From an uncultured Acidobacteriota bacterium (GTDB lineage: Bacteria > Acidobacteriota > Thermoanaerobaculia > Multivoradales > UBA5704): a stretch of DNA of 64,000 nucleotides. The position numbers and the translations under genes were made by a program. The stretch is taken from the NCBI GenBank assembly GCA_963761645.1, contig CAVXIG010000010.1, forward strand, positions 81,266 to 145,265, in the 5' to 3' direction. Below, piece after piece: positions 4,818-35,359 of the stretch; the first letter of the stretch is position 1; each line of letters begins with the position of its first letter. The notes beneath the pieces are model-generated. The model saw nothing but the letters and a program-made list of their open reading frames with translations, ran no database searches and was not told the DNA's origin.

Positions 4818-7800
4818 TTACCATCCCGGCGAAATCAAAAACCCCGTGACCCAACCCTGCTTCGGACGCTGGAAGGGCTTGGCGGTGTAGAACTCGAGCA
4901 CCGCGAAGCCGCCCAGCAGAACTCGCGCCGCGACGCCGGCGCTGACCACCGGCACCCGCTCGATCGAAGTGCGGTCGAAGCGCAGCGTCGGCGACTGCCC
5001 CTTCGACCAGGCGGTCCCGGCGTCGACGAAGAACGCCAGATCCGTCGGCAGGAACCGGGCCCGGATCAGGCCATACCCCTCGACCCCCAGGAGCGGCATC
5101 CGCAGCTCCAGGCTCGCCACCGCGAGGCGGCTCCCCACCAGGCGGTCGAACTCGGGGCAGGCGCTCGAGTTTCCCGGCACCGGGGTGCATTCCGACAGGT
5201 CGATGCTCCCCAGCTCGTAGCCGTGCACGAGCGAGGGATCGCCCAGGTAGAGCGTGGACAACTGGTTGTTCTCGGCATCCCTGCCATAGCGGCCGTAGTG
5301 GGTGCCGCGCACCGCCAGGGTCACCGGGCGGAAGAAGAAGTAGCGGCGGTAGTCGGCGGTCAGGGCCTGGAACTGGAGATCGCCGAAGGTGGGCTGCACT
5401 TCCAGGCGGTACCGGCGCCCGCGCACCGGGGAGGTGAAGCCGAAGTTGCTGCTGTCTCCCACGAAGCCGACCGAGGCCTGGTAGAGCTGGATCGACGGCG
5501 GGGCGGGCAGGCGCCGCCGCGCTTCGTCGACCGCCACGCCGCCGACCACGGTCAACTCCTCCAGATCGTATTTGTAGCTGATCCGGGTGACGCCGGCGGA
5601 GAGCTCGAAGCGCTGCGTGGTCGAGAACGGATAGCGGCTGATGAAGGCGGCCGAGTCCTCGGTCAGCGTCGACTGCACCTGCTGGATGAAGTTCGCGGGA
5701 ACCTCCCCCTGGTCGGTCTGGACCGTACCGGTCGACACCGAGGTGAAGGCCGAGATGTAGGGGACGTGGCCCGCCTGCCCCCCCCACTGCCAGCGGCTGG
5801 CTTGGTTGAGGTAGTAGCCCTGGGCGCCGAAGGCGTTGATCGTCTGCGCTCCGCTCACCCCGTAGAGGGCGAAGCCGAACTCGTGCTGGCCGAGCTCGTC
5901 GCTGAAGGCGCCGGAGAGGTCGCCGCCGAACGAGGTGCCGAAGGAGCTGAAGCCCACCCCGACGGACGGACCGAGGAAGTCGAGCCGGTAGCGGGGGCGG
6001 TAGCCCGTCACCTCGGCCGACCGTCCCTCCGGACCGGGCAGCGGCGGCAGAGTCTTGTTCTGAAGGTACTCGGAGACCAGCGACGTCCCCGTCGCCTGCT
6101 GCGGCGGCAGCAGGGCCGCGCGGGCCTCCGCCGCCTCGTCGCGAGCGGCGACCACCGCCTCGCCGCGGGCCGCCTCGGGGTCGAGGGCGTGGATCTCGTA
6201 ACGGTTGTCGGTGAAGATCGAGAACAGGACGAGGCCGTTGCGCTGCGACACCGTCAGGGCGGGCGACAGCCGCGTGATGCCGGTCACCCCGGTGGCGATC
6301 CGGGTGACGCGGAAAAGCTGGTTGTCGGCGAGCGCGAGCCGGTAGAGATCGCTCACCCCGGCGCGGTCGGAGAGGAAATAGAGATCCTTCCCTCCCGGTC
6401 CGAAGCGGGGGTTGATCTGGGTGGCGCCGGGCATCGGAGCGACGAGCTGGCGCTGGGCGCCGCTCGCCACGTCGAGGCTCCAGATGCCGACGTCGCCGTA
6501 GGCCGAGGCGGTCGAGGGGGGGCCGCCGCCGCTCTCCACGCCGCGGTCAGAGACGAAGACCAGCGTGCGGCCGTCCGGCGACCACTCGGGCTGGAGGTCG
6601 GCGTAGGGGTCGCTGGTCAGCCGGCGGGCGGTCCCGCCCGCCACGTCGATCAGGAAGAGATCGGTGAGGCCCCCGACCGAGCCGGAGACGGCGATCGAAC
6701 GGCCGTCCGGCGACCAGGCGGGATTCCAGAGCTGGCCGGCCTCCTGGACATCGATCTCCCGCTCGATCCGGCGCGAGCGCACGTCGACGATGGCGACGTG
6801 GTTGTCCCCCCGGGCGCCGACGACCAGGGCGATCTTGGCGCCGTCCGGCGACCAGGAGCCGGCCGAATCGAGGAAGCGCAGCGAATCGAGATGCGGATCG
6901 GCGTCCTCCGAGAGGATCTTGCCCCGGATCTCCCCCGTGCGGGCATCCGCCAGATAGAGGTCGAAGGTGAACAGGCTGCGGGTCGAGAAGACGGCGAACT
7001 GCGTGCCGTCCGGGCTGAGCGACGGCGAGACGTAGGTGTCGATCGTCTTGGCCTCGCGGGGGAGCACACGCCGGCCGGACGCGGCGGGCGTCTGCCGGGC
7101 CTCGATCACCGGCCCGTAGGAGTCGCGGATGGAAGCCTTCCAATCCTTGGAGAGCTGCTTGACCTCGGTCCCCAGCACCTCCTGCAGGGCGGCCTCGACG
7201 CCGATCTCGGAGCCGCGCGTGAACAGGCGGCCGACCGTCAGGTCCCCCCAGCGGCCGCCGATGTACCCCCAGAAGGCGTGCCCCCAGCGATAGGGGAAGA
7301 GCCGCGGATCGCGCGACAGCTTCTCGACGTCCGGCAGGGCGTCGCGGGCGAGGGCGTCGCGCAGGTACATCGCCGTCTGCGGCGCCTGGCGCCCGAGCGA
7401 CAGGTACTCGGCCAACCCCTCGACGAACCAGAGGGGAAGATTGATGCCGACCGAGCCGAACCGCCCCCCCGACGCCCGCTCGCCGCGCCGGGGCTCCTTC
7501 AGGATGTCGTACTGGAAGACGTGGGTCAGCTCGTGGCCGATGACGTGGTCGGTGTCCTCGAAGTCGCCGGTGAGCGGCAGGACGACCCGCTCCCGCAGCC
7601 CCTCGGTGACACCCCCCGTCCCCTCGCCGATCAGGCCGCCGACGACCGTGGTCTGCTGGAAGTCGCTCTGATCGGCATACAGGATGATCGACTTGCGCTC
7701 CCTGAACTCGCGGCCGAAGACCTGGGACAGCCGGCCGTACCAGCGCTCCGCCATCTGGGCGGCCTGGCGCACGCCCTGCTCCTCCTCAGGGTAGAAATGG

Positions 7801-26663: not shown

Positions 26664-28296
26664 TCCTTGGAAGAACGTCCAACACGTCCAGCGCCCACGT
26701 GGACACCTTCTGCCGCGAGTCCCTGCCGCCGCCGGAGCTGATGCCGGACCTGCGCTATGACGCGCTGCCGGAGCTCGCCTATCCGGACCGGCTGAACTGC
26801 GCCGCCGAGCTGCTCGACCGGCGGATCGCGGAAGGCGACGGCGACCGCGTCGGTCTTCCACTCCGCCGGCGGCCACTGGACCTACCGCCAGCTCCTGGAG
26901 ACCGCCAACCGCATCGCTCACGTTCTGGTGGAGGACCTCGGGATCGTGCCCGGCAACCGCGTGCTGCTGCGCGGGCCGAACAACCCGATGATGGCGGCCT
27001 GCTGGTTCGCCGTGCTCAAGGCCGGCGGCGTGGTGGTCTGCACCATGCCGCTGCTGCGCGTGCGCGAGCTGACCTACATCGCCGACAAGGCGAAGATCCG
27101 CCTCGCGCTGACCGACGCGCGGATCGCCGCCGATTGCGAGCAGGCCGCCACCTCGCGCGGAACGTGATCCATTTCAACAGCGCCGAGCCCGGCTCGCTCG
27201 AATCCCTGATGGCAGGGCAAACCCGCGACGTTCGACAACTGCGACACCGCCGCGGACGACACCGCCCTGATCGCCTTCACCTCCGGCACCACCGGGCAGG
27301 CGAAGGGGACGATGCACTTCCACCGCGACGTGATCGCCTGCTGCGACTGCTTCCCGCCCTACGTCCTGAAGGCGGAGCGGGACGACATCTTCTGCGGCTC
27401 CCCGCCGCTCGCCTTCACCTTCGGGCTCGGCGGCCTGCTCCTCTTCCCGCTGCGCATCGGCGCCTCGGCGCTGCTCCTGGAGCAGGCCTCGCCGCCGAAC
27501 CTTTTGCAAGGGATTCAGGATCACCGCGCGACCATCGTCTTCACCGCTCCGACCGCCTACCGCGCCATGGCCGATCTGGTGCAGGGGTTCGACATCTCGA
27601 GCCTCAGGAAGTGCGTCTCGGCCGGCGAGACCCTGCCGAAGCCGACCTTCGAAAAGTGGAAGGAGGCGACCGGCCTCGAGATCATCGACGGCATCGGCTC
27701 GACCGAGATGCTCCACATCTTCATCAGCTCCTCCGGCGACGAGATCCGCCCCGGCTCCACCGGCCGGGTCGTCCCCGGCTACGAGGCGCGGGTGGTGGAC
27801 GAGGACGGCAACGAGGTGCCGCCCGGCACCATCGGACACCTCGCGGTGCGCGGGCCGACCGGCTGCCGCTACCTGGACAACCTGGAGCGGCAGCGGGTCT
27901 ACGTCCGAACGGCTGGAACCTCCCGGGCGACTCCTACGTCCAGGACGCGGACGGCTACTTCTGGTACCAGGCGCGCACCGACGACATGATCGTCTCGGCG
28001 GGGCACAACATCTCCGGCCCCGAGGTCGAGAGCGTGCTGCTCGATCATCCGGCGGTCGCGGAGTGCGGCGTGGTGGCGGCGCCGGACGAGGGTCGCGGCC
28101 AGATCGTCAAGGCCTACGTCGTGACTGCGCCCGGGCTTCGACACCCGGCCAGGAGCTGATCAAGGAGCTGCAGGACTTCGTCAAGGCGGAGATCGCGCCG
28201 TACAAATATCCGCGGGCGATCGAGTTCGTCGACAGCCTGCCGCGCACCGAGACCGGCAAGCTCCAGCGCTTCCGCCTGCGGGAGCGCGCAGGTTGA
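26660..28296 (+). CDS. aryl-CoA ligase (AMP-binding enzyme; benzoate/2-aminobenzoate-CoA ligase-like), at least 5 frameshifts
   Basis: GTG start in GTGA overlap with ACAD stop; pieces in ORFs 25481..28159, 26928..27167, 27312..27989, 28063..28296: ...[19 protein letters not shown] (AMP motif)...YGSTE...[43 protein letters not shown]...[16 protein letters not shown]. Confidence 0.75.
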
Positions 28297-28692
28297 GCGA
28301 CATCCTCCTGCCGGAAGGGTGGGCCAAGCCCATCGGCTACGCCAACGGCATCGCCGCCCGCGGCCGGCTGGTCTTCGTCGCCGGCCAGATCGGCTGGAAC
28401 CCGGCGACCTGCCGAGTTCGAGACCGACGACTTCGCGGCGCAGACCGAGCAGACCCTGCGCAACGTCGCCGCCGTGCTGCGCGAGGCGGGAGCCGGCCCC
28501 GAGCACATCGCGCGGATGACCTGGTACATCACCGACAAGCCCGCCTACCTCGCCGCCCGGCGCGACATCGGCCGCGCCTGGCGCGAGATCCTCGGCCGGG
28601 TTTATCCGGCGATGGCGGTGGTGGTGGTGAGCGCCCTGATCGAGGACCGCGCCAAGGTGGAGATCGAGGCGACGGCGGTGGTGCCCGAGTAG
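28293..28692 (+). CDS. ridA: RidA/YjgF family enamine-imine deaminase (frameshift around 28410)
   Basis: TTG start in TTGA overlap with ligase stop; [37 protein letters not shown]... then ...[41 protein letters not shown]...[27 protein letters not shown]. Confidence 0.75.
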
Positions 28693-28715
28693 CGACGACA
28701 CCGCCCCGGTAGCTC

Positions 28716-29453
28716 CTATTTTTGACAGATGATATGCATCGCCGACGGTGCGGCGATGTACTCGTCCCAGAAGCCCTCGCCACGCTCGTGTTCCGATTCC
28801 GCGGGGATCAGGAAAGGCTCGATCTTGCAGGAGTGGAATCCCACGGTTCGGCATGCCTCCTCGTAGACCTCCCAGGGCCACCAGTAGAAGTCGAACTCCA
28901 CCGTGTTCGCACCGAGGTACAGTGTGCCGCGGAGCCTCGCCCCCTCGTGAAGGGTCTCGTCCAGAAGCCGGTAGCCGAACCCGTATTTTCGCTGATCGAC
29001 TACGGGCCGCGGCGGCTGGAGCGGATTGGCGATACTCGCAACGAACGGCTGGCCCGGCTCGAGGTTGTCGTAGACCGTCCGCATCATCTGGAGCAGTTGC
29101 TCCCGGCTCTCGGCATAGTGCAGGAGGTACGCGGCGGAGACACGGTCGAACGAGCCGATTTTCCCCAGCGTCGCGGCGTCCGCGACACGGTACTCGATCT
29201 CCATGGGCTCCGCGTCTTCGCGCTGCTGGGCCAACGCGATCATCTGCGCCGAGATGTCGACGCCCACCACGCGCGCGGCCCCCCACCGCTTGAGCAGGCG
29301 GGTGCCCATCCCGTCGCCGCAGGCCAGGTCGAGGACGGAGAGACCCGCCAGGTCGCCAAGCCGCTGGTGGAGCGAGTACCACTCGGCGTCGCGGAGCGGC
29401 ACGGCGGCGGAGATCCTCTGATAGTCGAGGGCAATCGAGTCGTACTGTGTCAC
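28716..29453 (-). CDS. class I SAM-dependent methyltransferase
   Basis: 245 aa intact; motif I VLDLACGDGMGT; divergent from the RiPP-like precursor gene. Confidence 0.75.
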   Translation of the reverse strand: MTQYDSIALDYQRISAAVPLRDAEWYSLHQRLGDLAGLSVLDLACGDGMGTRLLKRWGAARVVGVDISAQMIALAQQREDAEPMEIEYRVADAATLGKIGSFDRVSAAYLLHYAESREQLLQMMRTVYDNLEPGQPFVASIANPLQPPRPVVDQRKYGFGYRLLDETLHEGARLRGTLYLGANTVEFDFYWWPWEVYEEACRTVGFHSCKIEPFLIPAESEHERGEGFWDEYIAAPSAMHIICQK

Positions 29454-29597
29454 GTGTCTTCCTTCCGTGGAGTGGGTCTGCCGCCGAGCCGCGTCCTCCG
29501 GCGCCTTGGACTCACAGCCTTCACGCGTAGTGCGCTCATGGCGGCATTCTGGATTGCGAAAGGCGTGCCGGAAAAAAGCCGCGGCTGCTCTACCATC

Positions 29598-29633
29598 TCC
29601 GCTACGAATCGCTTGGAACCTCGCCCCTTTGGG
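29598..29633. repeat. 31-bp direct repeat, copy A (ccgctacgaaTcgcTtggAacctcgcccc...)
   Basis: About 87 percent identical to copy B at 30529..30565; the two copies bracket the precursor-peptide segment. Confidence 0.5.
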
Positions 29634-29673
29634 CCAAGGTCGAGATCGAGGCCACGGCGGTTGTGCCCGAGTA
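29632..29673 (+). pseudogene. remnant 3-prime fragment of a second RidA gene (encodes [13 protein letters not shown])
   Basis: gccaaggtcgagatcgaggccacggcggttgtgcccgagtaa encodes the same C-terminal peptide as ridA at 28654..28692, with synonymous differences; no upstream ORF. Confidence 0.45.
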
Positions 29674-29711
29674 AGGGCGGATCATTCTCCAAGATTGGCG
29701 GAGAGCCACGA

Positions 29712-29741
29712 TTGACAGCCCAATGTCTCGGGGAGCAAAAT
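29712..29741 (+). promoter_or_regulatory. sigma70-like promoter: -35 TTGACA (29712-29717), 18-nt spacer, -10 CAAAAT (29736-29741)
   Basis: Perfect -35 hexamer about 70 nt upstream of the precursor ATG; followed by GGAGGG Shine-Dalgarno at 29776-29781. Confidence 0.4.
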
Positions 29742-29784
29742 TGCCCGCGCGCTTTTGCGCTACCTCTCACTAACCGGAGGGCTT

Positions 29785-29946
29785 ATGAAGAAAACGTTCA
29801 AGAAGCTCAACCTCGCCAAGGAGACGATCTGCGAGCTCGACACCCTGGGAAGCGTCGTCGGGGGAGCCACCACCACCTGCAATTCTACCTTCTGCACCAG
29901 GACCTGCACGACCAGCTACAACACCTGCACGACCTACCTCTGCTGA
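29785..29946 (+). CDS. RiPP-like precursor peptide (53 aa): Gly-Gly leader plus Cys/Ser/Thr-rich core
   Basis: MKKTFKKLNLAKETICELDTLGSVVGG | ATTTCNSTFCTRTCTTSYNTCTTYLC*; strong Shine-Dalgarno and promoter; core has 5 Cys and 13 Ser/Thr of 26 residues. Confidence 0.55.
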   Translation: MKKTFKKLNLAKETICELDTLGSVVGGATTTCNSTFCTRTCTTSYNTCTTYLC

Positions 29947-30046
29947 TGGATCTCGACCGGCTGAATTGAGCGACGTCGGGGACCCGGTCGCCACAGCCGG
30001 CACGCCGTCGACGACCGGAGCGAGAAGGTCGTCGCCACTCTGCTCC

Positions 30047-30085
30047 CCGAAGTGCGGCCTTTTTGCACGGGCCCTGGTGCAAAAG
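30047..30085. terminator. hairpin gcggcctttttgcac-gggccctg-gtgcaaaaggccgc downstream of precursor gene
   Basis: 14-bp near-perfect inverted repeat about 100 nt after the precursor stop; no U-tract, so terminator function is uncertain. Confidence 0.3.
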
Positions 30086-30528
30086 GCCGCGCTTGGGTGA
30101 GCCCCTGGCGCTTGGCGGGCTCATTAACGCTCGGCCGCCGTCACGCTCCGATACACCGATTGGGGCACGTTTCCGGCCCACTAAAACCGTGGGTGGTCGC
30201 TCGTGGTGAAGCGCGTATCCTGGTTCTCGTGGTGCCCGGAGTCGAGGTCTGTTGCGAAGCCCCAGCGGGGCGGCAGCGGGCGAAGATCCGCCCGTCGGCA
30301 GCCGCCGAAACGGCTGCCACCTCGCTGGGGCACCTCGTTGGTTGACGAAGGGCGCTAGCCGTTGGACCGGTCGTCGCGCGGCTGGGTAGGATCCTCCGTG
30401 AGGGTCCCAGGGATGGTCAGGTGGCTGCTTTTCAGGAGGGACAAGAAGAGGAATAGGATTCGCATCCCCCGATTTTCCCCCAAGTGGCCGGCGTTTGTAT
30501 AGACGGGCGAGCAGTCGGCCTCATCGGA

Positions 30529-30565
30529 CCCGCTACGAAGCGCCTGGCACCTCGCCCCCTGCGAG
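30529..30565. repeat. 31-bp direct repeat, copy B
   Basis: cccgctacgaaGcgcCtggCacctcgccccc matches copy A. Confidence 0.5.
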
Positions 30566-30688
30566 ACGAAAGCGGTAGAAAAAAGACGGGGCCCTGTGTC
30601 CAGACGCAGGAGCCCCGTCAACCCGCACGGGTTTCCTTCGATTCAGTTGTCAAAGAGCGTTTTGCTCGCCAAAAGTGCTCCGCGAGCC

Positions 30689-31041
30689 TCATTCCCCGCG
30701 CCTCGAGAGGCGTTCCCCGCCTCTCGAGGCCAATCCGCTCCCTCTCGCGCCCCATTCCCTACCGCCGCAACCCGTTCCCTCCAGGGAATCAGGGATGAAG
30801 TCCAAACTTTGCCCCATTCCCCACCCTTCACGCTCCATGGGGACTCCGGAACGCGGCATTCCCCGTGGGGAACGCCGCCCGGGATCCAGGGAACGGGCCG
30901 CCAGACGTCTTCATATCATGCAAGCTCAAGTCAACGTCTCATTCCCTCTGGGGAATGCCCCGCCAGCAGCGGGGAACGCCTCATTCCCCCTTCGCCGCAA
31001 CTCATTCCCCCGAGGGAGCATCAATCACTCTATAGGGAATC
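30689..31041. repeat. dense array (about 12 copies, both orientations) of an 8-mer CATTCCCC / GGGGAATG-like motif, including palindromes
   Basis: cattccccgcg CCTCGAGAGG cgttccccg CCTCTCGAGG ... cattccct ... cgttccct ... cattcccc ... cattccccgtggggaacg ... cattccctctggggaatg ... ggggaacgcctcattccccc ... tagggaatcc; non-coding, lower G+C. Confidence 0.6.
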
Positions 31042-31293
31042 CACCGCAAAGCGAGCCTCTGAAGCGCTGAACGCTCCCGAGTCTCCGCCGCAGGGTCTTG
31101 ACGACATCCTTAACGCGGTGAATACTATTCATATAGCGCTTGTCTGTCCAGGGGCTTCGAGAAGAGGCACTCAGCAGCCCGGCGAAGGGCCTGGGGCGGC
31201 CCTGCGGATCGCCGGGCTCCGCCGTCGAGCCCGCGCTCCGTCGCCGTCCCCGAGGAACGGCCCGAGCTCTTTGACAATCGATGGACCTGCCAG

Positions 31294-31318
31294 GGGAACG
31301 GTAGCGGGGCCGTTCCCC
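31294..31318. other. hairpin ggggaacgg-tagcgggg-ccgttcccc in the 5-prime flank of IS110 transposase (same GGGGAAC/GTTCCCC motif as the array)
   Basis: 9-bp perfect inverted repeat about 170 nt upstream of the transposase start. Confidence 0.4.
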
Positions 31319-31482
31319 TTGGCTCCTACCTTTCCGCGAATGACTCGCGCCACCCTGCCCGAACCGCGTTCACCCACCGGCGAAGGCGGTAGAGATGGGA
31401 TGAGAAGGCCAACCTCCTGAGACGCAGTGCCATACTTTGGCCTGCAAACAGGAGAAAAAGCGCTGGTAGGCGCGAAAGGAGG

Positions 31483-32550
31483 TTGGCCGTGGTTCACTCT
31501 AGCAGAGTCGAGGTGCAGGAGGTGGTGGGGTTGGATGTCGGGGATCGTTCGAGCCAGATCTGTCGGTTGGATCGTCAGACCGGGACCGTCCTTGAGGAGA
31601 GGCGGTTGTCGACGACGACGGCGAGCGTCCAGTGTTATTTCGGAGCTCTGGCGCCTCAGTTGATCGCGCTGGAGAGCGGGACCCACAGCCTGTGGCTGAC
31701 GCGGTTGCTGAAATCTTTGGGTCACGAGGTGATTGTGGCCAATCCGAGCAAGGTCCGGGCGATCTCGTCGAGCCTGCAGAAGACCGACGAGCGCGACGCA
31801 CGGTGCCTGGCGCAATTGGTCCGGGTGGACCCGCAGTTGCTGTCGCCGGTGCATCCGCGCAGCGAGGAATCTCAGCAAGCGATCGCGGTCGTACGGGCTC
31901 GGGAGGGCCTGGTCAAGGCACGGACGATGTTGATCAATCAGATCCGCGGGATGGTGAAGTCGTTCGGCTTCCGTCTGCCGGCGGTCTCCTCGGCGGGGTT
32001 TGCCCGCAAAATTCAGAAAGAAGAGACCCTGCCCTGCTCGCTGAAGACGACGCTGGAGCCGTTACTGCGGGTGATCGCCGAAGTGAGTCAGGAGATCGCC
32101 CGCTTCGACAAAGAGGTCGAGGCCTTGGCCCGACGCTGGCCGGTGACCCAGCGGCTGCGCCAGATCAAGGGGGTGGGAGCGCTGACAGCTCTGGTGTTCG
32201 TGCTGACGTTGGGGGATCCCTACCGCTTCGCCTGCTCACGGGCCGTGGGAGCGTATCTGGGCTTGGTCCCGGGCAATCGCAGCTCGGGCCAGTCGACTCC
32301 GCAAATGCCGATTACCCGACAAGGGGACCGCATGTTAAGACGGCTGCTGGTGCAAGCCTCTCACTACGTCTTGGGACCGTTTGGGCAAGACAGCGACCTG
32401 CGACGATTTGGGCTACGACTGGCTGAGCGCGGGGGCAAGAGCGGTAAGAAACGAGCCGTGGTGGCCGTGGCTCGCAAGCTGGCGGTGGTGCTGCACTGTC
32501 TCTGGGTCAGCGAAACGGACTACCTGCCTCTGCGCGCAACGGCAGCCTAG
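31483..32550 (+). CDS. IS110 family transposase/recombinase
   Basis: 355 aa intact; N-terminal VVGLDVGDRSS (RuvC-like DEDD) and C-terminal ...KGVGALTALVFVLTLGDPYRF...YLGLVPGNRSSGQS... Tnp domain; AAAGGAGG Shine-Dalgarno. Confidence 0.9.
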   Translation: MAVVHSSRVEVQEVVGLDVGDRSSQICRLDRQTGTVLEERRLSTTTASVQCYFGALAPQLIALESGTHSLWLTRLLKSLGHEVIVANPSKVRAISSSLQKTDERDARCLAQLVRVDPQLLSPVHPRSEESQQAIAVVRAREGLVKARTMLINQIRGMVKSFGFRLPAVSSAGFARKIQKEETLPCSLKTTLEPLLRVIAEVSQEIARFDKEVEALARRWPVTQRLRQIKGVGALTALVFVLTLGDPYRFACSRAVGAYLGLVPGNRSSGQSTPQMPITRQGDRMLRRLLVQASHYVLGPFGQDSDLRRFGLRLAERGGKSGKKRAVVAVARKLAVVLHCLWVSETDYLPLRATAA

Positions 32551-32993
32551 AAGAACCAGGCAGGGACGAAAGACAACGAGCAGGTAGGAGAAACGTCCGA
32601 AGAATCGGAGTTGGAGTCTCAACCCCCGTTGTCGGCGACTGCGTTGTGACGTCTTGGCCTTCGAGGCCGACGTAGAGAGTGCAGCGCCGCGGCGGTGGAA
32701 CCCCATAATGCACCGAGCCCAATGGCGGCTCCTTGAGAGTGCGGATGGAAGACTCGGGGACTGATCCAACTCTGGTCTATAAGGAAGGCCGCCATGGCGG
32801 CCTTGCAATTTGGGGCCTTCTCATGGAAGACGTCCCAGACGATGTGCGCTGATCTTTCAAGGCCAACGCCGGCGGGTCGTCTCCGCGGCGGCGATGCCGG
32901 CCTGATCCTCACCGACCCTGGACGTCGCGAATTCCGACGAGGCCCCCCCTCCCCTACGCAGCGGCAGGCACGCCGTGAAGTAAGATCCAGACG

Positions 32994-34412
32994 ATGACCG
33001 GCACGGAATCACTGTGGGGACTGATTCTCCTCATCTGCCATGCCGCCGGCTTCCTCTGCGCCGTCCACGCCCTGATGTCGGTGCGGACCCCCCAGGGCAC
33101 CATGGCCTGGGGGGTCGCCCTGCTCGCGTTCCCCTACTTCGCGGTGCCCGCCTACTTCGTGCTCGGACGGTCGAAGTTCCACGGCTACAAGGTCGCCCGG
33201 CAGGTTCTGGAGGCGAGCTCGGAGGAGAGAGCCGCCAGGGCCGTGCGGCCGTTCGTCGTTCAGCCGGAGGATCACGGCCCCCTGCTCGCCGCCGTCGCGC
33301 TGGCCACGATCCCCTTTCTGAAAGGCAACGAGGTCGAGCTGCTGGTGGACGGCCGGGCCACCTTCGACGACATTTTCGCCGGCATCGAAGAGGCTCAGGG
33401 CTATGTGCTCGTGCAGTTCTTCATCGTGCATGACGACGAGCTCGGGCGGGAGCTGAAATCGCTCCTGCTCCGCAAGGCCGCCGCCGGAGTCAGGGTCTAC
33501 TTCCTGTTCGACGAGTTCGGCAGCCACGCCCTGCCGCGGGCCTATCTGCGCGAGCTTCGCGACGGCGGGGTCGCGGCCCGTCCGTTCCACACCACCCGCG
33601 GCCCCGGCAACCGGTTCCAGCTCAACTTCCGCAACCATCGCAAGGTGGTCGTCGTCGACGGCCGCACCGGCTGGATCGGCGGGCACAACGTGGGGAACGA
33701 GTACCTGGGCCTGAGCCCGCGCCTCGGCCCCTGGCGGGACACGCACGTCCGCGTCACCGGCCCCGCGGTGCTCGGCATGCAGAAGTCCTTCTATGACGAC
33801 TGGCGCTGGGCGACGGGTGAAAAGCTGCAGCTCGACTGGCTCGCCCAGCCTTCCGCCCGGGGGGACGTGCCGGCGCTGATCCTGGCCTCGGGGCCGGCCG
33901 ACCCGCTCGAGACCGCGAGCCTGATGTTCCAGGACGTGATCCACTCGGCGCGCCGGAGGCTCTGGATCACCAGCCCCTACTTCGTCCCCGACCCGGCCGT
34001 GGTCGGCGCGCTCCACCTGGCGGCGCTGCGCGGGGTCGAGGTGCGTATCCTGATTCCCAACGATCCCGACCACCTGCTGGTCTATCTGTCGGCGTTCGCC
34101 TTCGTCGGCGAGATGATCGACGCCGGCATCGAGATCTACCGCTACCAGGCGGGCTTTCTGCACCAGAAAGTCTTTCTGATCGACGACGCGGTGGCCGGCG
34201 TCGGCACCGCGAACCTCGACAACCGCTCCTTCCGGCTCAATTTCGAGATCACCGCGATCTTCGCCGACCGCGACGTCGCCGCGCGGGTGGAGCGCATGCT
34301 CGCGGCGGACTTCGCCCGGGCGCGCCGGATGACCCGCGAGGAGCTGCGGAAGAAGCCGTTCTGGTTCAAGGCGGCCGCCCGCGCCGCCACTCTCGCCGCG
34401 CCGATCCAGTAA
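32994..34412 (+). CDS. cls: cardiolipin synthase (PLD superfamily, two HKD motifs)
   Basis: 472 aa intact; two N-terminal TM helices; HRKVVVVDG and HQKVFLIDD HKD motifs. Confidence 0.85.
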   Translation: MTGTESLWGLILLICHAAGFLCAVHALMSVRTPQGTMAWGVALLAFPYFAVPAYFVLGRSKFHGYKVARQVLEASSEERAARAVRPFVVQPEDHGPLLAAVALATIPFLKGNEVELLVDGRATFDDIFAGIEEAQGYVLVQFFIVHDDELGRELKSLLLRKAAAGVRVYFLFDEFGSHALPRAYLRELRDGGVAARPFHTTRGPGNRFQLNFRNHRKVVVVDGRTGWIGGHNVGNEYLGLSPRLGPWRDTHVRVTGPAVLGMQKSFYDDWRWATGEKLQLDWLAQPSARGDVPALILASGPADPLETASLMFQDVIHSARRRLWITSPYFVPDPAVVGALHLAALRGVEVRILIPNDPDHLLVYLSAFAFVGEMIDAGIEIYRYQAGFLHQKVFLIDDAVAGVGTANLDNRSFRLNFEITAIFADRDVAARVERMLAADFARARRMTREELRKKPFWFKAAARAATLAAPIQ

Positions 34413-34434
34413 ACGAAGCGACTGGACGGAGCCG

Positions 34435-34700
34435 GTGGGCAGCCGCCGCCCAGTGCGGGGGGAGGAGCCTTGCCGTGATGGGCAGCCGTCGCCCAGTGCG
34501 GGGGAAGGATCGTGCCGTGGTGGGCAGCCGTCGCCCAGCGGGGGGAAAGGGTCGGGCCGTGGTGGGCGGCGGCTGCCCAGCTGGGGGAGAAGGTTTCCCC
34601 CTGGTGGGCGGCGGCTGCCCACCGGGGCAAGGGACGTCCCCCGCGTTGGGCGGCGATCGCCCACCGGCGCGAGGGCCTTGCCGGGACCGGGGGGCTCGGC
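34435..34700. repeat. 42-bp tandem repeat array (about 6 units) with 15-bp GC-rich core gggcagccgccgccc, present in both orientations
   Basis: Units 1-3 carry gggcagccg(c/t)cgcccag; units 4-6 carry the reverse complement gggcggcggctgccca; inter-core segments are mutually similar, so this is not CRISPR. Confidence 0.65.
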
Positions 34701-34705
34701 CCCCT

Positions 34706-35050
34706 CTACTCCGCCGGTCTCCTCTTCAGGGGGCGGGGCACGCCCCGGCGGGGCTTGAGGCCGAACTCGGTCAGCTTCTCGCCGGAGTCTCCGTAACGGC
34801 TCCGGATTCCGATCCGCACCAGGACGGCGATCTCGCGCCCTCTCTCCTTGGCGGTATCCAGGTCCCGGGTCACCTGCTGCTTTCTGGCGTTGAGGGCATC
34901 CTGCTCGCCGCCGAGCGCCTTGATCCTGTCGACGAGCTCCTGGAGCTCCACCCGGTCCTCCTCGAGATGGCTGAGATCCCCCGGGTTGGCCTCCCACGCG
35001 GCGAGGAGCTGCTCCCACCGGGCCAGGGTCATGGCGACGGATTCCTTGGA
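34706..35050 (-). CDS. hypothetical protein (coiled-coil-like)
   Basis: ORF 34706..35107; probable start MSKESVAMTLARWEQLLAAWEANPGDLSHLEEDRVELQELVDRIKALGGEQDAL... Confidence 0.35.
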   Translation of the reverse strand, partial: SKESVAMTLARWEQLLAAWEANPGDLSHLEEDRVELQELVDRIKALGGEQDALNARKQQVTRDLDTAKERGREIAVLVRIGIRSRYGDSGEKLTEFGLKPRRGVPRPLKRRPAE

Positions 35051-35359
35051 CATGAAGACCTCCGGAAAGTTGCCCGAATCATGGCCGCGCGCCCCGGAGG
35101 CTGTCAACGGGAGGACGATCCGCCGCCTTGCTCTACTGGGTCAAATTGCCTTGGCTGAGGCGCTGAGCCCTCATCACCCCGGCCCTCTTCTCCCGTCCCC
35201 TCCCCCCTCCCTCCCCGGGAGAAGAGGGAGAAAGCAAACCCGTCTCCTGAAGCCCCCTCTCTCCCGGCGGTTGGGGGGGAGGCTGGGAGAGAGGGGTTGG
35301 GGAGTGAGGGATAGCCCCGAAGGGCGATACTCTCCGAGCCGGTGCTGTAGGCTGGTGGC

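Follow-up and report, generated by a model that had tools for sequence, protein, structure and literature searches.

In the window, the whole stretch of 64,000 nucleotides from an uncultured Acidobacteriota bacterium that was analysed here, a short 8-mer recurs many times in both orientations close to an IS110-family insertion sequence (IS), and the question raised by this locus is what such a dense cluster represents. The possibilities considered in the earlier note on this DNA were a cluster of sites for a DNA-binding protein, REP-like palindromes serving as IS110 targets and an array generated by repeated IS excision. The cluster in the window is one of the copies of a non-coding repeat element of soil Acidobacteria that had not been described before, and it belongs to a cassette family that is dispersed through the chromosomes of soil Thermoanaerobaculia (Acidobacteriota). 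With a probability of about 0.5, the array within this element would be a platform on which proteins bind cooperatively along one helical face, and the dispersed cassette that carries it may be mobile.

Architecture of the box array and its bounding element

Matches to YRTTCCCY number 26 in the 64-kb window, as compared to 14.8 ± 3.8 expected, and comprise 13 strict boxes at 30690-31010, two further boxes in a hairpin (31293/31311) and 11 matches that correspond to the background level. At the rate observed in the rest of the window, 0.066 matches are expected in 321 bp (Poisson P = 6e-26). With the inclusion of three relaxed boxes, GGGAAT at 30784 and 31035 among them, the array contains 16 boxes and ends at 31041, which bears out the earlier count of at least 12 copies of the 8-mer in both orientations within about 350 bp. 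Three 18-bp palindromes are found in the array; two of them (30857-30874 and 30940-30957) had been quoted before and are both present, and the third, at 30773-30790, reads CGTTCCCTCCAGGGAATC. The nested perfect pair that had also been described is indeed a perfect 13-bp inverted repeat (30700-30712 / 30718-30730) with the loop TTCCC, and the arms of this hairpin, CCTCGAGAGG, resemble the box of a second array type found in L002 (see below). All boxes in the window fall on a 10.4-10.5-bp lattice (Rayleigh R = 0.98 vs ~0.25 for random positions), with spacings of 20, 21 or 42 bp between boxes on the same strand and of 10, 11 or 52 bp between boxes on opposite strands. The lattice was not part of the earlier description of the cluster.

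Since the reading frame of successive boxes drifts (0,0,0,2,2,2,1,1,1) and no ORF with coding-like GC3 overlaps the window array, the region is non-coding, as had been claimed, and a coding reading was dropped on the same grounds. The lower G+C content attributed to the region is present, but the drop is only modest (0.59-0.675 vs about 0.68-0.70). With conservation confined to the boxes, the window array went undetected by Tandem Repeats Finder. Two other candidates were set aside on the basis of box structure: an ECF-promoter reading of the GGGAAC boxes, as the logo contains no -10-like element at 16-18 nt, and a CRISPR array, for which repeats of at least 23 bp with unique spacers of at least 26 bp were taken as the criterion, as the conserved unit here is 8 bp (18-bp palindrome) on a 21-bp period and the spacers of the L149 array are near-identical.

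The array constitutes the core of a bounded non-coding element of ~740 bp, located at about 30585-31323 (Table 1), in which a terminator hairpin at the outer edge, the left 12-mer TTGTCAAAGAGC, the box array, an outward sigma-70-like promoter, the inverted 12-mer and a second outer hairpin follow one another. Only two perfect copies of TTGTCAAAGAGC are present in the 64 kb (30647 and 31266), inverted with respect to each other and bracketing the array. On the minus strand, the left outer hairpin is followed by T6 at 30579-30584, and the two together probably form an outward-facing, intrinsic-terminator-like element end. A hairpin at 31294-31318 had previously been placed inside the 5' flank of the IS110 element; it is real and extends over 31289-31323, but 70 bp separate it from the IS, and it forms the right-hand end of the array element and not a part of the IS. 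Between the array and the right 12-mer, a predicted plus-strand promoter, TTGACG-17-AATACT (31098-31126), points away from the array, and an overlapping minus-strand partner, TGGACA-17-TAGTAT (31150-31122), is predicted to point into it.

Table 1. Positions in the window of the array element, the adjacent IS110-family element and its target
Feature	Position	Strand	Basis or remark
Left outer hairpin, GACGGGGCC...GGAGCCCCGTC	30585..30619	-	sequence; homologous position/structure at 20+ element ends elsewhere
Left terminal 12-mer, TTGTCAAAGAGC (extended form ATTCAG-TTGTCAAAGAGC)	30647..30658	+	perfect copy
Array of CRTTCCCY / RGGGAAYG boxes, n = 16	30690..31041	.	10.4-bp lattice
Promoter-like site	31098..31150	.	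prediction; most A+T-rich 30 bp of the region (67% A+T)
Promoter-proximal segment, putatively transcribed, without ORF	31127..31265	+	fold z = -1.4, not notable
Right terminal 12-mer, plus-strand GCTCTTTGACAA	31266..31277	-	perfect inverted copy
Right outer hairpin, GCCAGGGGAACGG-tagcgggg-CCGTTCCCCTTGGC	31289..31323	+	homologous to right-end hairpins of L198, L191, L134, L142
Left half of REP-like palindromic target (…CACCGGCGAAGGCGGTAGAGA)	31360..31395	+	outside the array element
IS110-family insertion sequence	31396..32830	+	ends by alignment to three copies and empty sites
Transposase ORF	31489-32550	+	Pfam DEDD_Tnp_IS110 and Transposase_20
IS 3' non-coding region with guide-like segments	32551-32830	+	sequence match to target
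Right half of REP-like target (CGTCCCAGACGATGTGCGCTGATCTTTC…GGCGGGTCGTCTCCGCGG)	32831..32900	+	92% identical to uninterrupted L004 copy 5811-5880

A dispersed family of arrays in Thermoanaerobaculia

The cardiolipin synthase that flanks the locus is 96-97% identical to those of Thermoanaerobaculia/Acidobacteriota MAGs. As a ridA-like gene abuts the cardiolipin synthase gene cls in L007, L008 and L010, the segment 28694-32986 of the window is a variable insert, and no array is found at the equivalent locus of the closest relatives L004-L006. L008, a related Thermoanaerobaculia genome with a cls 86% identical, contains an array of the same boxes at a different locus, 2.4 kb downstream of cls, which has two extended palindromes in common with the window array, yet is not colinear with it.

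Using the 18-mer palindrome CRTTCCCCGTGGGGAAYG as a query, a metagenome scan matched at least 120 loci. Among the 120 matches listed, 28 (about 26 distinct contigs) are array loci with 9-18 boxes within 400 bp, and the box counts among these listed matches are bimodal, with 9-18 in arrays vs 2-3 elsewhere, the latter representing the palindrome itself. Viral contigs yielded four chance matches to the palindrome and no arrays. The lattice recurs in 27 of the 28 arrays with R = 0.91-0.99 at 10.3-10.5 bp and with R = 0.80 in L008, mean R at other periods in this set being ~0.2. Across the arrays, whose length is about 350 bp (typically 330-355 bp), only the spacings ++ 21/42/63/84, +- 10/31 and -+ 11/32/53 are seen. 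The orientation of the boxes is biased inward, with 125 plus to 61 minus in the left halves and 76 plus to 116 minus in the right halves, and a weaker second box, TTCRCG(AGG), is located 9-10 bp upstream of each CRTTCCCY, at half-steps of the 21-bp unit. The L149 array consists of eight near-identical 42-bp units, each with CATTCCCCnnGGGGAACG, and most other arrays, including that of the window, keep just the boxes and their register. This mode of conservation is also observed between the orthologous arrays of L115 and L131, which differ by an indel of exactly 21 bp and in which motif columns are 88% identical vs 65% for spacer columns.

Homology between copies of the element amounts to 70-88% and ends at the outer hairpins, and the genes beside the arrays are unrelated (MacB/FtsX, PriA, Usp, Ser/Thr kinase, S41 peptidase, radical-SAM enzyme and ABC-2 transporter), so that the cassette qualifies as a dispersed repeat, with a density of roughly one array per 100 kb of chromosomal sequence. 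Arrays are flanked by TTGTCAAAGAGC in 16 of 30 loci, always in the orientation left '>' and right '<', the background being 0.07 per kb. The inverted (ATTCAG)TTGTCAAAGAGC is present at both ends in five loci and at one end in 11 more, and perfect inverted 12-mers like those of the window occur also in L110, L117, L191 and L198. A G+C-rich hairpin, often with a U tract, is positioned 4-15 nt outward of each 12-mer copy, and across loci the structure of these outer hairpins is kept while their sequence varies. Also conserved in position is a gcTTGACR promoter, found in the same place in L117, L191, L198, L134, L142, L163, L110 and L148, which has the form gcTTGACR-16/18-nATAnT, lies between the array and one 12-mer and points outward. 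For the window and L198, an overlapping inward-facing partner is also predicted, for L148 and L191 none. The -35 hexamer has no consistent phase with respect to the lattice across families, and some arrays sit between convergent genes, leaving the promoter no room.

Downstream of the promoter, either an ORF-free stretch of 50-250 nt follows or, in the case of L148 and L198, a gene encoding a coiled-coil protein of 110-130 aa, a 45%-identical homologue of which is encoded in the window at 34706-35052, 3.4 kb away; homologues of this window type adjoin other repeats and not box arrays. The AlphaFold model of the cargo protein (pLDDT 85) predicts two helices and a basic tail, without a significant PDB fold match, and the protein was assigned to no Pfam, NCBIfam or PHROG family. 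Its candidacy as the binder of the boxes was dropped, since the model suggests plain helices and matches no DNA-binding fold.

The 21-bp pattern is also found with another box. Beside the IS copy of L002, at a distance of 32 bp, lies a 295-bp array of fourteen 21-bp units with the box CCTCGCGAR, in which ten plus-orientation units are followed by five in minus orientation. Since the same pattern is built there from a different box, the 21-bp grammar is common to arrays of different specificity. The box CCTCGCGAR is similar both to the box at the half-steps of the main family and to the CCTCGAGAGG/CCTCTCGAGG pair of the window.

Proposed protein binding and its alternatives

The favoured reading remains the cluster of protein-binding sites that had been proposed among the initial possibilities, and it is inferred from boxes that are conserved vs spacers that have diverged, from a strict one-turn lattice in ~28 independent arrays, from the palindromes and from hairpins that show no covariation. 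Its structural basis consists of 18-bp palindromes spaced 21 or 42 bp over about 350 bp, with boxes that alternate or point inward. An 18-bp palindrome followed by 3 bp is the geometry of the tandem ARG boxes bound by ArgR. The lattice alone is no proof of selection for one helical face, because a tandem 21-bp unit with an 18-bp palindrome yields a 10.5-bp lattice by construction. According to this reading, the boxes would be half-sites for a dimeric, sequence-specific DNA-binding protein, which would assemble cooperatively on one helical face, with contacts that alternate between head-to-head and tail-to-tail. The extended nucleoprotein complex formed in this way could regulate the cassette promoter, have an architectural or titrating role, or do both, with the terminators insulating it from read-through transcription, and the promoter would drive a short RNA or, in two loci, the gene of the small coiled-coil protein. 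An all-against-all BLASTP of the flanking ORFs in 30 loci, together with Pfam, revealed neither a regulator gene consistently adjacent to the arrays nor a shared flanking protein family that could be a candidate binder.

Known tandem operators of dimeric or hexameric repressors provide a geometric parallel, since the ARG boxes of ArgR (18-bp palindromes, 3 bp apart) and the box arrays of Fur and MetJ have the identical 21-bp geometry, place successive dimers on one face and are conserved at the level of the box. However, they contain 2-5 boxes before one regulated gene, whereas 10-18 boxes over 350 bp are contained here in a dispersed cassette, and their box sequence is unrelated to CRTTCCCY. 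A more far-reaching proposal, which may be entertained only tentatively and with the odds clearly against it, is that the cassettes form a new class of chromosomal cis-elements, namely dispersed, transcriptionally insulated 'landing pads' on which a dedicated protein would polymerise on one face of the helix over ~33 turns, the specificity of the boxes becoming diverse (CRTTCCCY vs CCTCGCGAR). These would be multi-copy chromosomal analogues of plasmid centromeres or enhancers, spreading as mobile promoter cassettes in an uncultured Acidobacteria lineage and carrying a REP-like module used by an RNA-guided IS110-family recombinase.

An explanation in terms of transposition is unlikely, even if it would be compatible with a regulatory role. 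It holds that the cassette is a MITE-like non-autonomous element, in which 12-18-bp terminal inverted repeats are transposase ends and the boxes are subterminal transposase sites, direct within an arm and inverted between arms as in Tn7/Mu ends. Consistent with it are the inverted 12-mers that bound the element at one or both ends, the homologous copies (element only) beside unrelated genes, the absence of the element at this locus from the closest relatives and the succession of a plus and then a minus block of boxes, which is clearest in L002. However, neither a target-site duplication nor any direct repeat is seen at the element ends, no transposase-bearing autonomous copy is seen among the 30 loci, about half of the arrays lack the 12-mers and the array layouts differ, so that they are not copies of one master. 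Ten to eighteen binding sites also far exceed what is known from bacterial transposon ends, and to our knowledge none of these has anywhere near that number. Tn7/Mu ends share with the present arrays the ~22-bp-period sites that are direct within an end and inverted between ends, but they contain 3-4 sites each and are accompanied by a transposase operon and a 5-bp target duplication, neither of which was found here. Invertons of the fimS type resemble the element in that short perfect inverted repeats bracket a 0.5-1.2-kb segment with a promoter and phased protein sites. In contrast to them, the element has terminators just outside the repeats, no adjacent recombinase and the same internal orientation in seven of seven comparable copies: family A (L134, L142, L191, L198 and L175) and family B (L110 and L163) keep the same promoter-side hairpin type, which is a weak test as it uses assembled copies alone.

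Distinctly improbable is a function of the array as RNA or single-stranded DNA, either as a long non-coding RNA with an imperfect hairpin, whose transcription would start at the inward-facing promoter and stop at the left 12-mer and terminator, or as stabilising or terminating hairpins like REP/BIME. The minus strand from 31118 to 30575 folds at -272 kcal/mol vs -231 ± 7 for shuffles (z = -5.65), L198 and the window have a predicted partner promoter that faces inward, both element ends carry 12-mer, hairpin and U-tract as if transcripts exit both ways, and the location is intergenic, like that of REP/BIME. Against this stands the variation within paired boxes, where the R positions (AA 27, AG 24, GA 11, GG 6) vary independently, so that hairpin pairing is not the conserved property. 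Accordingly, no compensatory variation is observed, and 35% of head-to-head pairs fall into the A.C mismatch class, which is the frequency predicted by independence. Moreover, many boxes are unpartnered, the exact box sequence is conserved across families beyond mere pairing, L148 and L191 are without a predicted inward promoter and no Rfam family matches. REP/BIME-like hairpins with conserved structure were dropped as a candidate, the palindromes being without compensatory change. REP/BIME of E. coli, BOX A-Bn-C of pneumococcus, MIRU and Correia elements are, like the present element, intergenic, dispersed and lineage-restricted, may carry promoters or terminators and have variable internal tandem units between conserved inverted end modules. 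They are conserved as whole sequences or hairpins, whereas here only the 8-bp boxes and their register are conserved, without sequence similarity to any of them.

The array has a very low likelihood of being the iteron-type origin or the sopC/parC-like partition centromere of a replicon that is integrated or has ceased to exist as such, a reading that is largely refuted by gene context. The resemblance is real in form, as phased palindromic boxes with a 21/42-bp period over ~350 bp, arranged in two orientation blocks by a promoter, recall sopC, R1 parC and P1 incA, and L149 has 8 x 42 bp. Plasmid centromere and iteron arrays (F sopC with 12 x 43 bp, R1 parC, pSK41 parC, P1 incA and RK2 oriV) likewise consist of tandem phased, often palindromic boxes over 0.2-0.5 kb in two orientation blocks, sometimes by a promoter, with a box sequence that is each system's own, to which the difference between the CRTTCCCY and CCTCGCGAR arrays may be compared. 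However, those are single-copy, are located on plasmids and lie beside the par or rep genes that encode their binding proteins, whereas the present arrays are multi-copy, chromosomal, at their density of roughly one per 100 kb, and beside housekeeping genes. No rep, par or relaxase gene lies beside any array, there are no DnaA boxes at up to one mismatch and no parS at up to three mismatches, an A+T-rich unwinding region is missing, the most A+T-rich 30 bp being the promoter, and a GC-skew switch is absent. A search of plasmid DNA with 30600-31480 gave zero homologues. A reading as oriC or replicon was dropped by the lack of a GC-skew switch, DnaA boxes and parS.

In kind, the element thus compares by analogy with interspersed intergenic repeats on the one hand and with tandem operator or centromere arrays on the other, both of which it appears to resemble. 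No published description was found for the combination of a dispersed, insulated and promoter-bearing element with 10-18 boxes one turn apart, and this grammar of 10-18 sites at one helical turn is undescribed for chromosomal repeats as far as the literature was searched. Full-text literature searches for the palindrome or the 12-mer yielded nothing beyond coincidental matches to primers, and Rfam 15 gave no relevant match for window positions 28000-34000 or for eight array loci, be it for the array, the promoter-side RNA or the ends, with only sub-threshold Acido-Lenti-1 hairpins outside the elements. If the boxes are protein-binding sites, the cassettes would mark a new DNA-binding system, be it regulatory, architectural or mobile, in Thermoanaerobaculia, an abundant and almost uncultured soil lineage. 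As the arrays can be found by their pattern, they offer a direct handle for the discovery of the binder by DAP-seq or pull-down.

The neighbouring IS110-family element

The array end lies 355 bp from the IS in the window. Three copies of this IS, 83% identical, are present in another MAG (L001-L003) and align with the window only from 31389 to 32838. In L001 (5594) an uninterrupted inverted copy of the flank, CGGCGAAGGCGGTAGAGACGTCCCAGGTCGTAACGA, is found, and the close relative L004 has the empty site GTAGAAACGACCCAGACGATGTGCGCTGATCTTTC at 5804-5840; for these two reasons, the IS proper is delimited to 31396-32830 with a 2-bp core GA. The target is GTAGA-GA-CGTCCCAG, with GTAGAGA preceding and CGTCCCAG following the IS at the junctions, and it sits in a REP-like palindrome with a GTAG head, which often occurs as inverted pairs. 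In the 3' region of the IS, a hairpin is bordered by two segments that correspond to the target, GACGTCT and GTAGAGA, and a further segment, ATGGAAGA, corresponds to the right IS end. Such a non-coding 3' part with target-matching segments is as expected for IS110/IS1111 elements guided by bridge or seek RNAs. The sequence CATTCCCC plays no part in the IS junctions, the target or the guide-like segments. Plasmid relatives of the IS110 element are at best 37% identical. For the IS110-family element ISPpu9, PMC12288879 describes insertion in REP sequences and an sRNA gene downstream of the transposase gene.

With this target, the supposition that REP-like palindromes of the array serve IS110 insertion is only partly upheld: the array is not the target, but the IS does sit in a different REP-like palindrome. 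Nor do the other IS110 copies share the motif, as had been suggested for checking, since no CRTTCCCY boxes occur at the flanks of the three other copies, where YRTTCCCY is found 0, 2 and 1 times in 9 kb each and never at a junction. An origin of the array as scars of repeated IS excision is not supported: dozens of array loci are without an IS, and IS110-type excision is precise. That the adjacent IS uses the boxes as targets, or left them behind on excision, is barely credible, for all the closeness of the array in the window, of the different-box 21-bp array to the L002 copy and of the REP-like IS-target palindromes to arrays in L131 and L115: these readings fail because the IS site, set by junctions and empty sites and matched by the guide-like segments, is unrelated to the boxes and the other IS copies are without CRTTCCCY arrays, and more than 25 arrays have no IS nearby. 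Direct targeting of the boxes by the IS is refuted, and an indirect link, by which the IS target module travels with the cassettes, is possible.

The IS110 element probably arrived independently of the array, by insertion into the REP-like palindrome, and its annotation is hereby corrected with respect to the ends, the 2-bp core, the REP-like target and a predicted 3' guide-RNA region. Of the four IS copies, two have a lattice array no more than 400 bp away, and the REP-like IS-target palindrome shows a weak tendency to accompany the array cassettes, by a link to the IS that would be at most indirect.

The variable insert between the ridA-like gene and cls

In three relatives (L007, L008 and L010), the segment 28694-32986 of the window is absent as a whole and ridA lies directly beside cls, the cardiolipin synthase gene. 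The 37-bp direct repeat on either side of the SAM-methyltransferase gene is a duplication of the 3' end of the ridA-like gene, and with this bracketing repeat the segment has the appearance of a hot spot for nested insertions. The first ~40 residues of the ridA-like ORF look like a good RidA N-terminus, beyond which the frame continues as Arg/Pro-rich nonsense, and this switch could be due to a frameshift or an assembly indel. The small Cys/Thr-rich ORF, preceded by a promoter-like site at 29712-29741, encodes a putative RiPP-like precursor (MKKTFKKLNLAKETICELDTLGSVVGG continuing as ATTTCNSTFCTRTCTTSYNTCTTYLC), whose weak NCBIfam match to a class I lanthipeptide leader (E = 0.004) is under the cut-off; its region is also present in the close relative L005 (1-398).

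Features in and around the insert and at compared loci
Feature	Location	Strand	Remarks
ridA-like ORF	window 28293-28712	+	
37-bp direct repeat	window 28651-28687, 29633-29669		flanks SAM-methyltransferase gene on both sides
SAM-methyltransferase gene	window 28716-29453	-	between the two 37-bp copies
29-nt direct repeat	window 29599-29627, 30530-30558		CCGCTACGAAkCGCyTGGmACCTCGCCCC; copies 90% identical
Putative RiPP-like precursor	window 29785-29946	+	53 aa, Cys/Thr-rich
13-nt repeat	window 30567-30579, 31381-31393		CGAARGCGGTAGA
GTAG-head REP-like palindromic family	window 31360-31395, 32831-32900; L004 5640-5880; L001 5365-5610; L131 850-1050		
IS110-family element	window 31396-32830		IS1111-like layout
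Tandem REP-like hairpins	window 34440-34690; L211 5385-5590; L213 5395-5590		TGGGCRGCSGCYGCCCA
Coiled-coil protein gene	window 34706-35052	-	115 aa
21-bp-unit array	L002 5394-5688		box CCTCGCGAR; fourteen units, plus block then minus block
Acido-Lenti-1 RNA motif, sub-threshold	L110 4745-4791, 4942-4988; L198 4999-5043; L001 6031-6075		

The IS110-family element and its target

The IS110-family element, relatives of which occur on numerous metagenome contigs with lengths of ~1.45 kb, has 93 non-coding nt at its 5' side and 280 nt at its 3' side, an 11-bp subterminal inverted repeat (ATGAGAAGGCC) and a GA core. Guide-like segments in the 3' region (GACGTCT at 32648, GTAGAGA at 32672 and ATGGAAGA at 32745) match target and donor. 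The insertion site is a REP-like repeat with a GTAG head (…CGAAGGCGGTAGAGACGTCCCAGGTCGTAACGATACCCTTTC…GGCGGGACGTCTCC), a family frequently arranged as inverted pairs with 120-230 bp between. The left arm of this target is the 13-nt repeat, one copy of which lies immediately outside the left end of the array cassette and the other ~60 bp past its right end.

Other repeats and the coiled-coil protein gene

At L002, which carries another copy of the element, an array 32 bp off the right end of that copy follows the grammar of the window array with another box sequence. Sub-threshold Acido-Lenti-1 matches, which score 29-34 bits where the gathering score is 37, form inverted pairs at distances of a few hundred bp from array cassettes, and this motif is a further interspersed hairpin repeat in these genomes. 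The 115-aa coiled-coil protein belongs to a family of 23 clusters, found only in Thermoanaerobaculia, and at the three loci whose sequence was inspected (the window, L211 and L213) its gene is followed by 5-6 tandem REP-like hairpins with a period of ~44 bp. The block 34412-35330 is missing from the closest relatives, L004-L006, and homologues of this protein are the cargo of the array cassettes in the metagenome loci L148 and L198.
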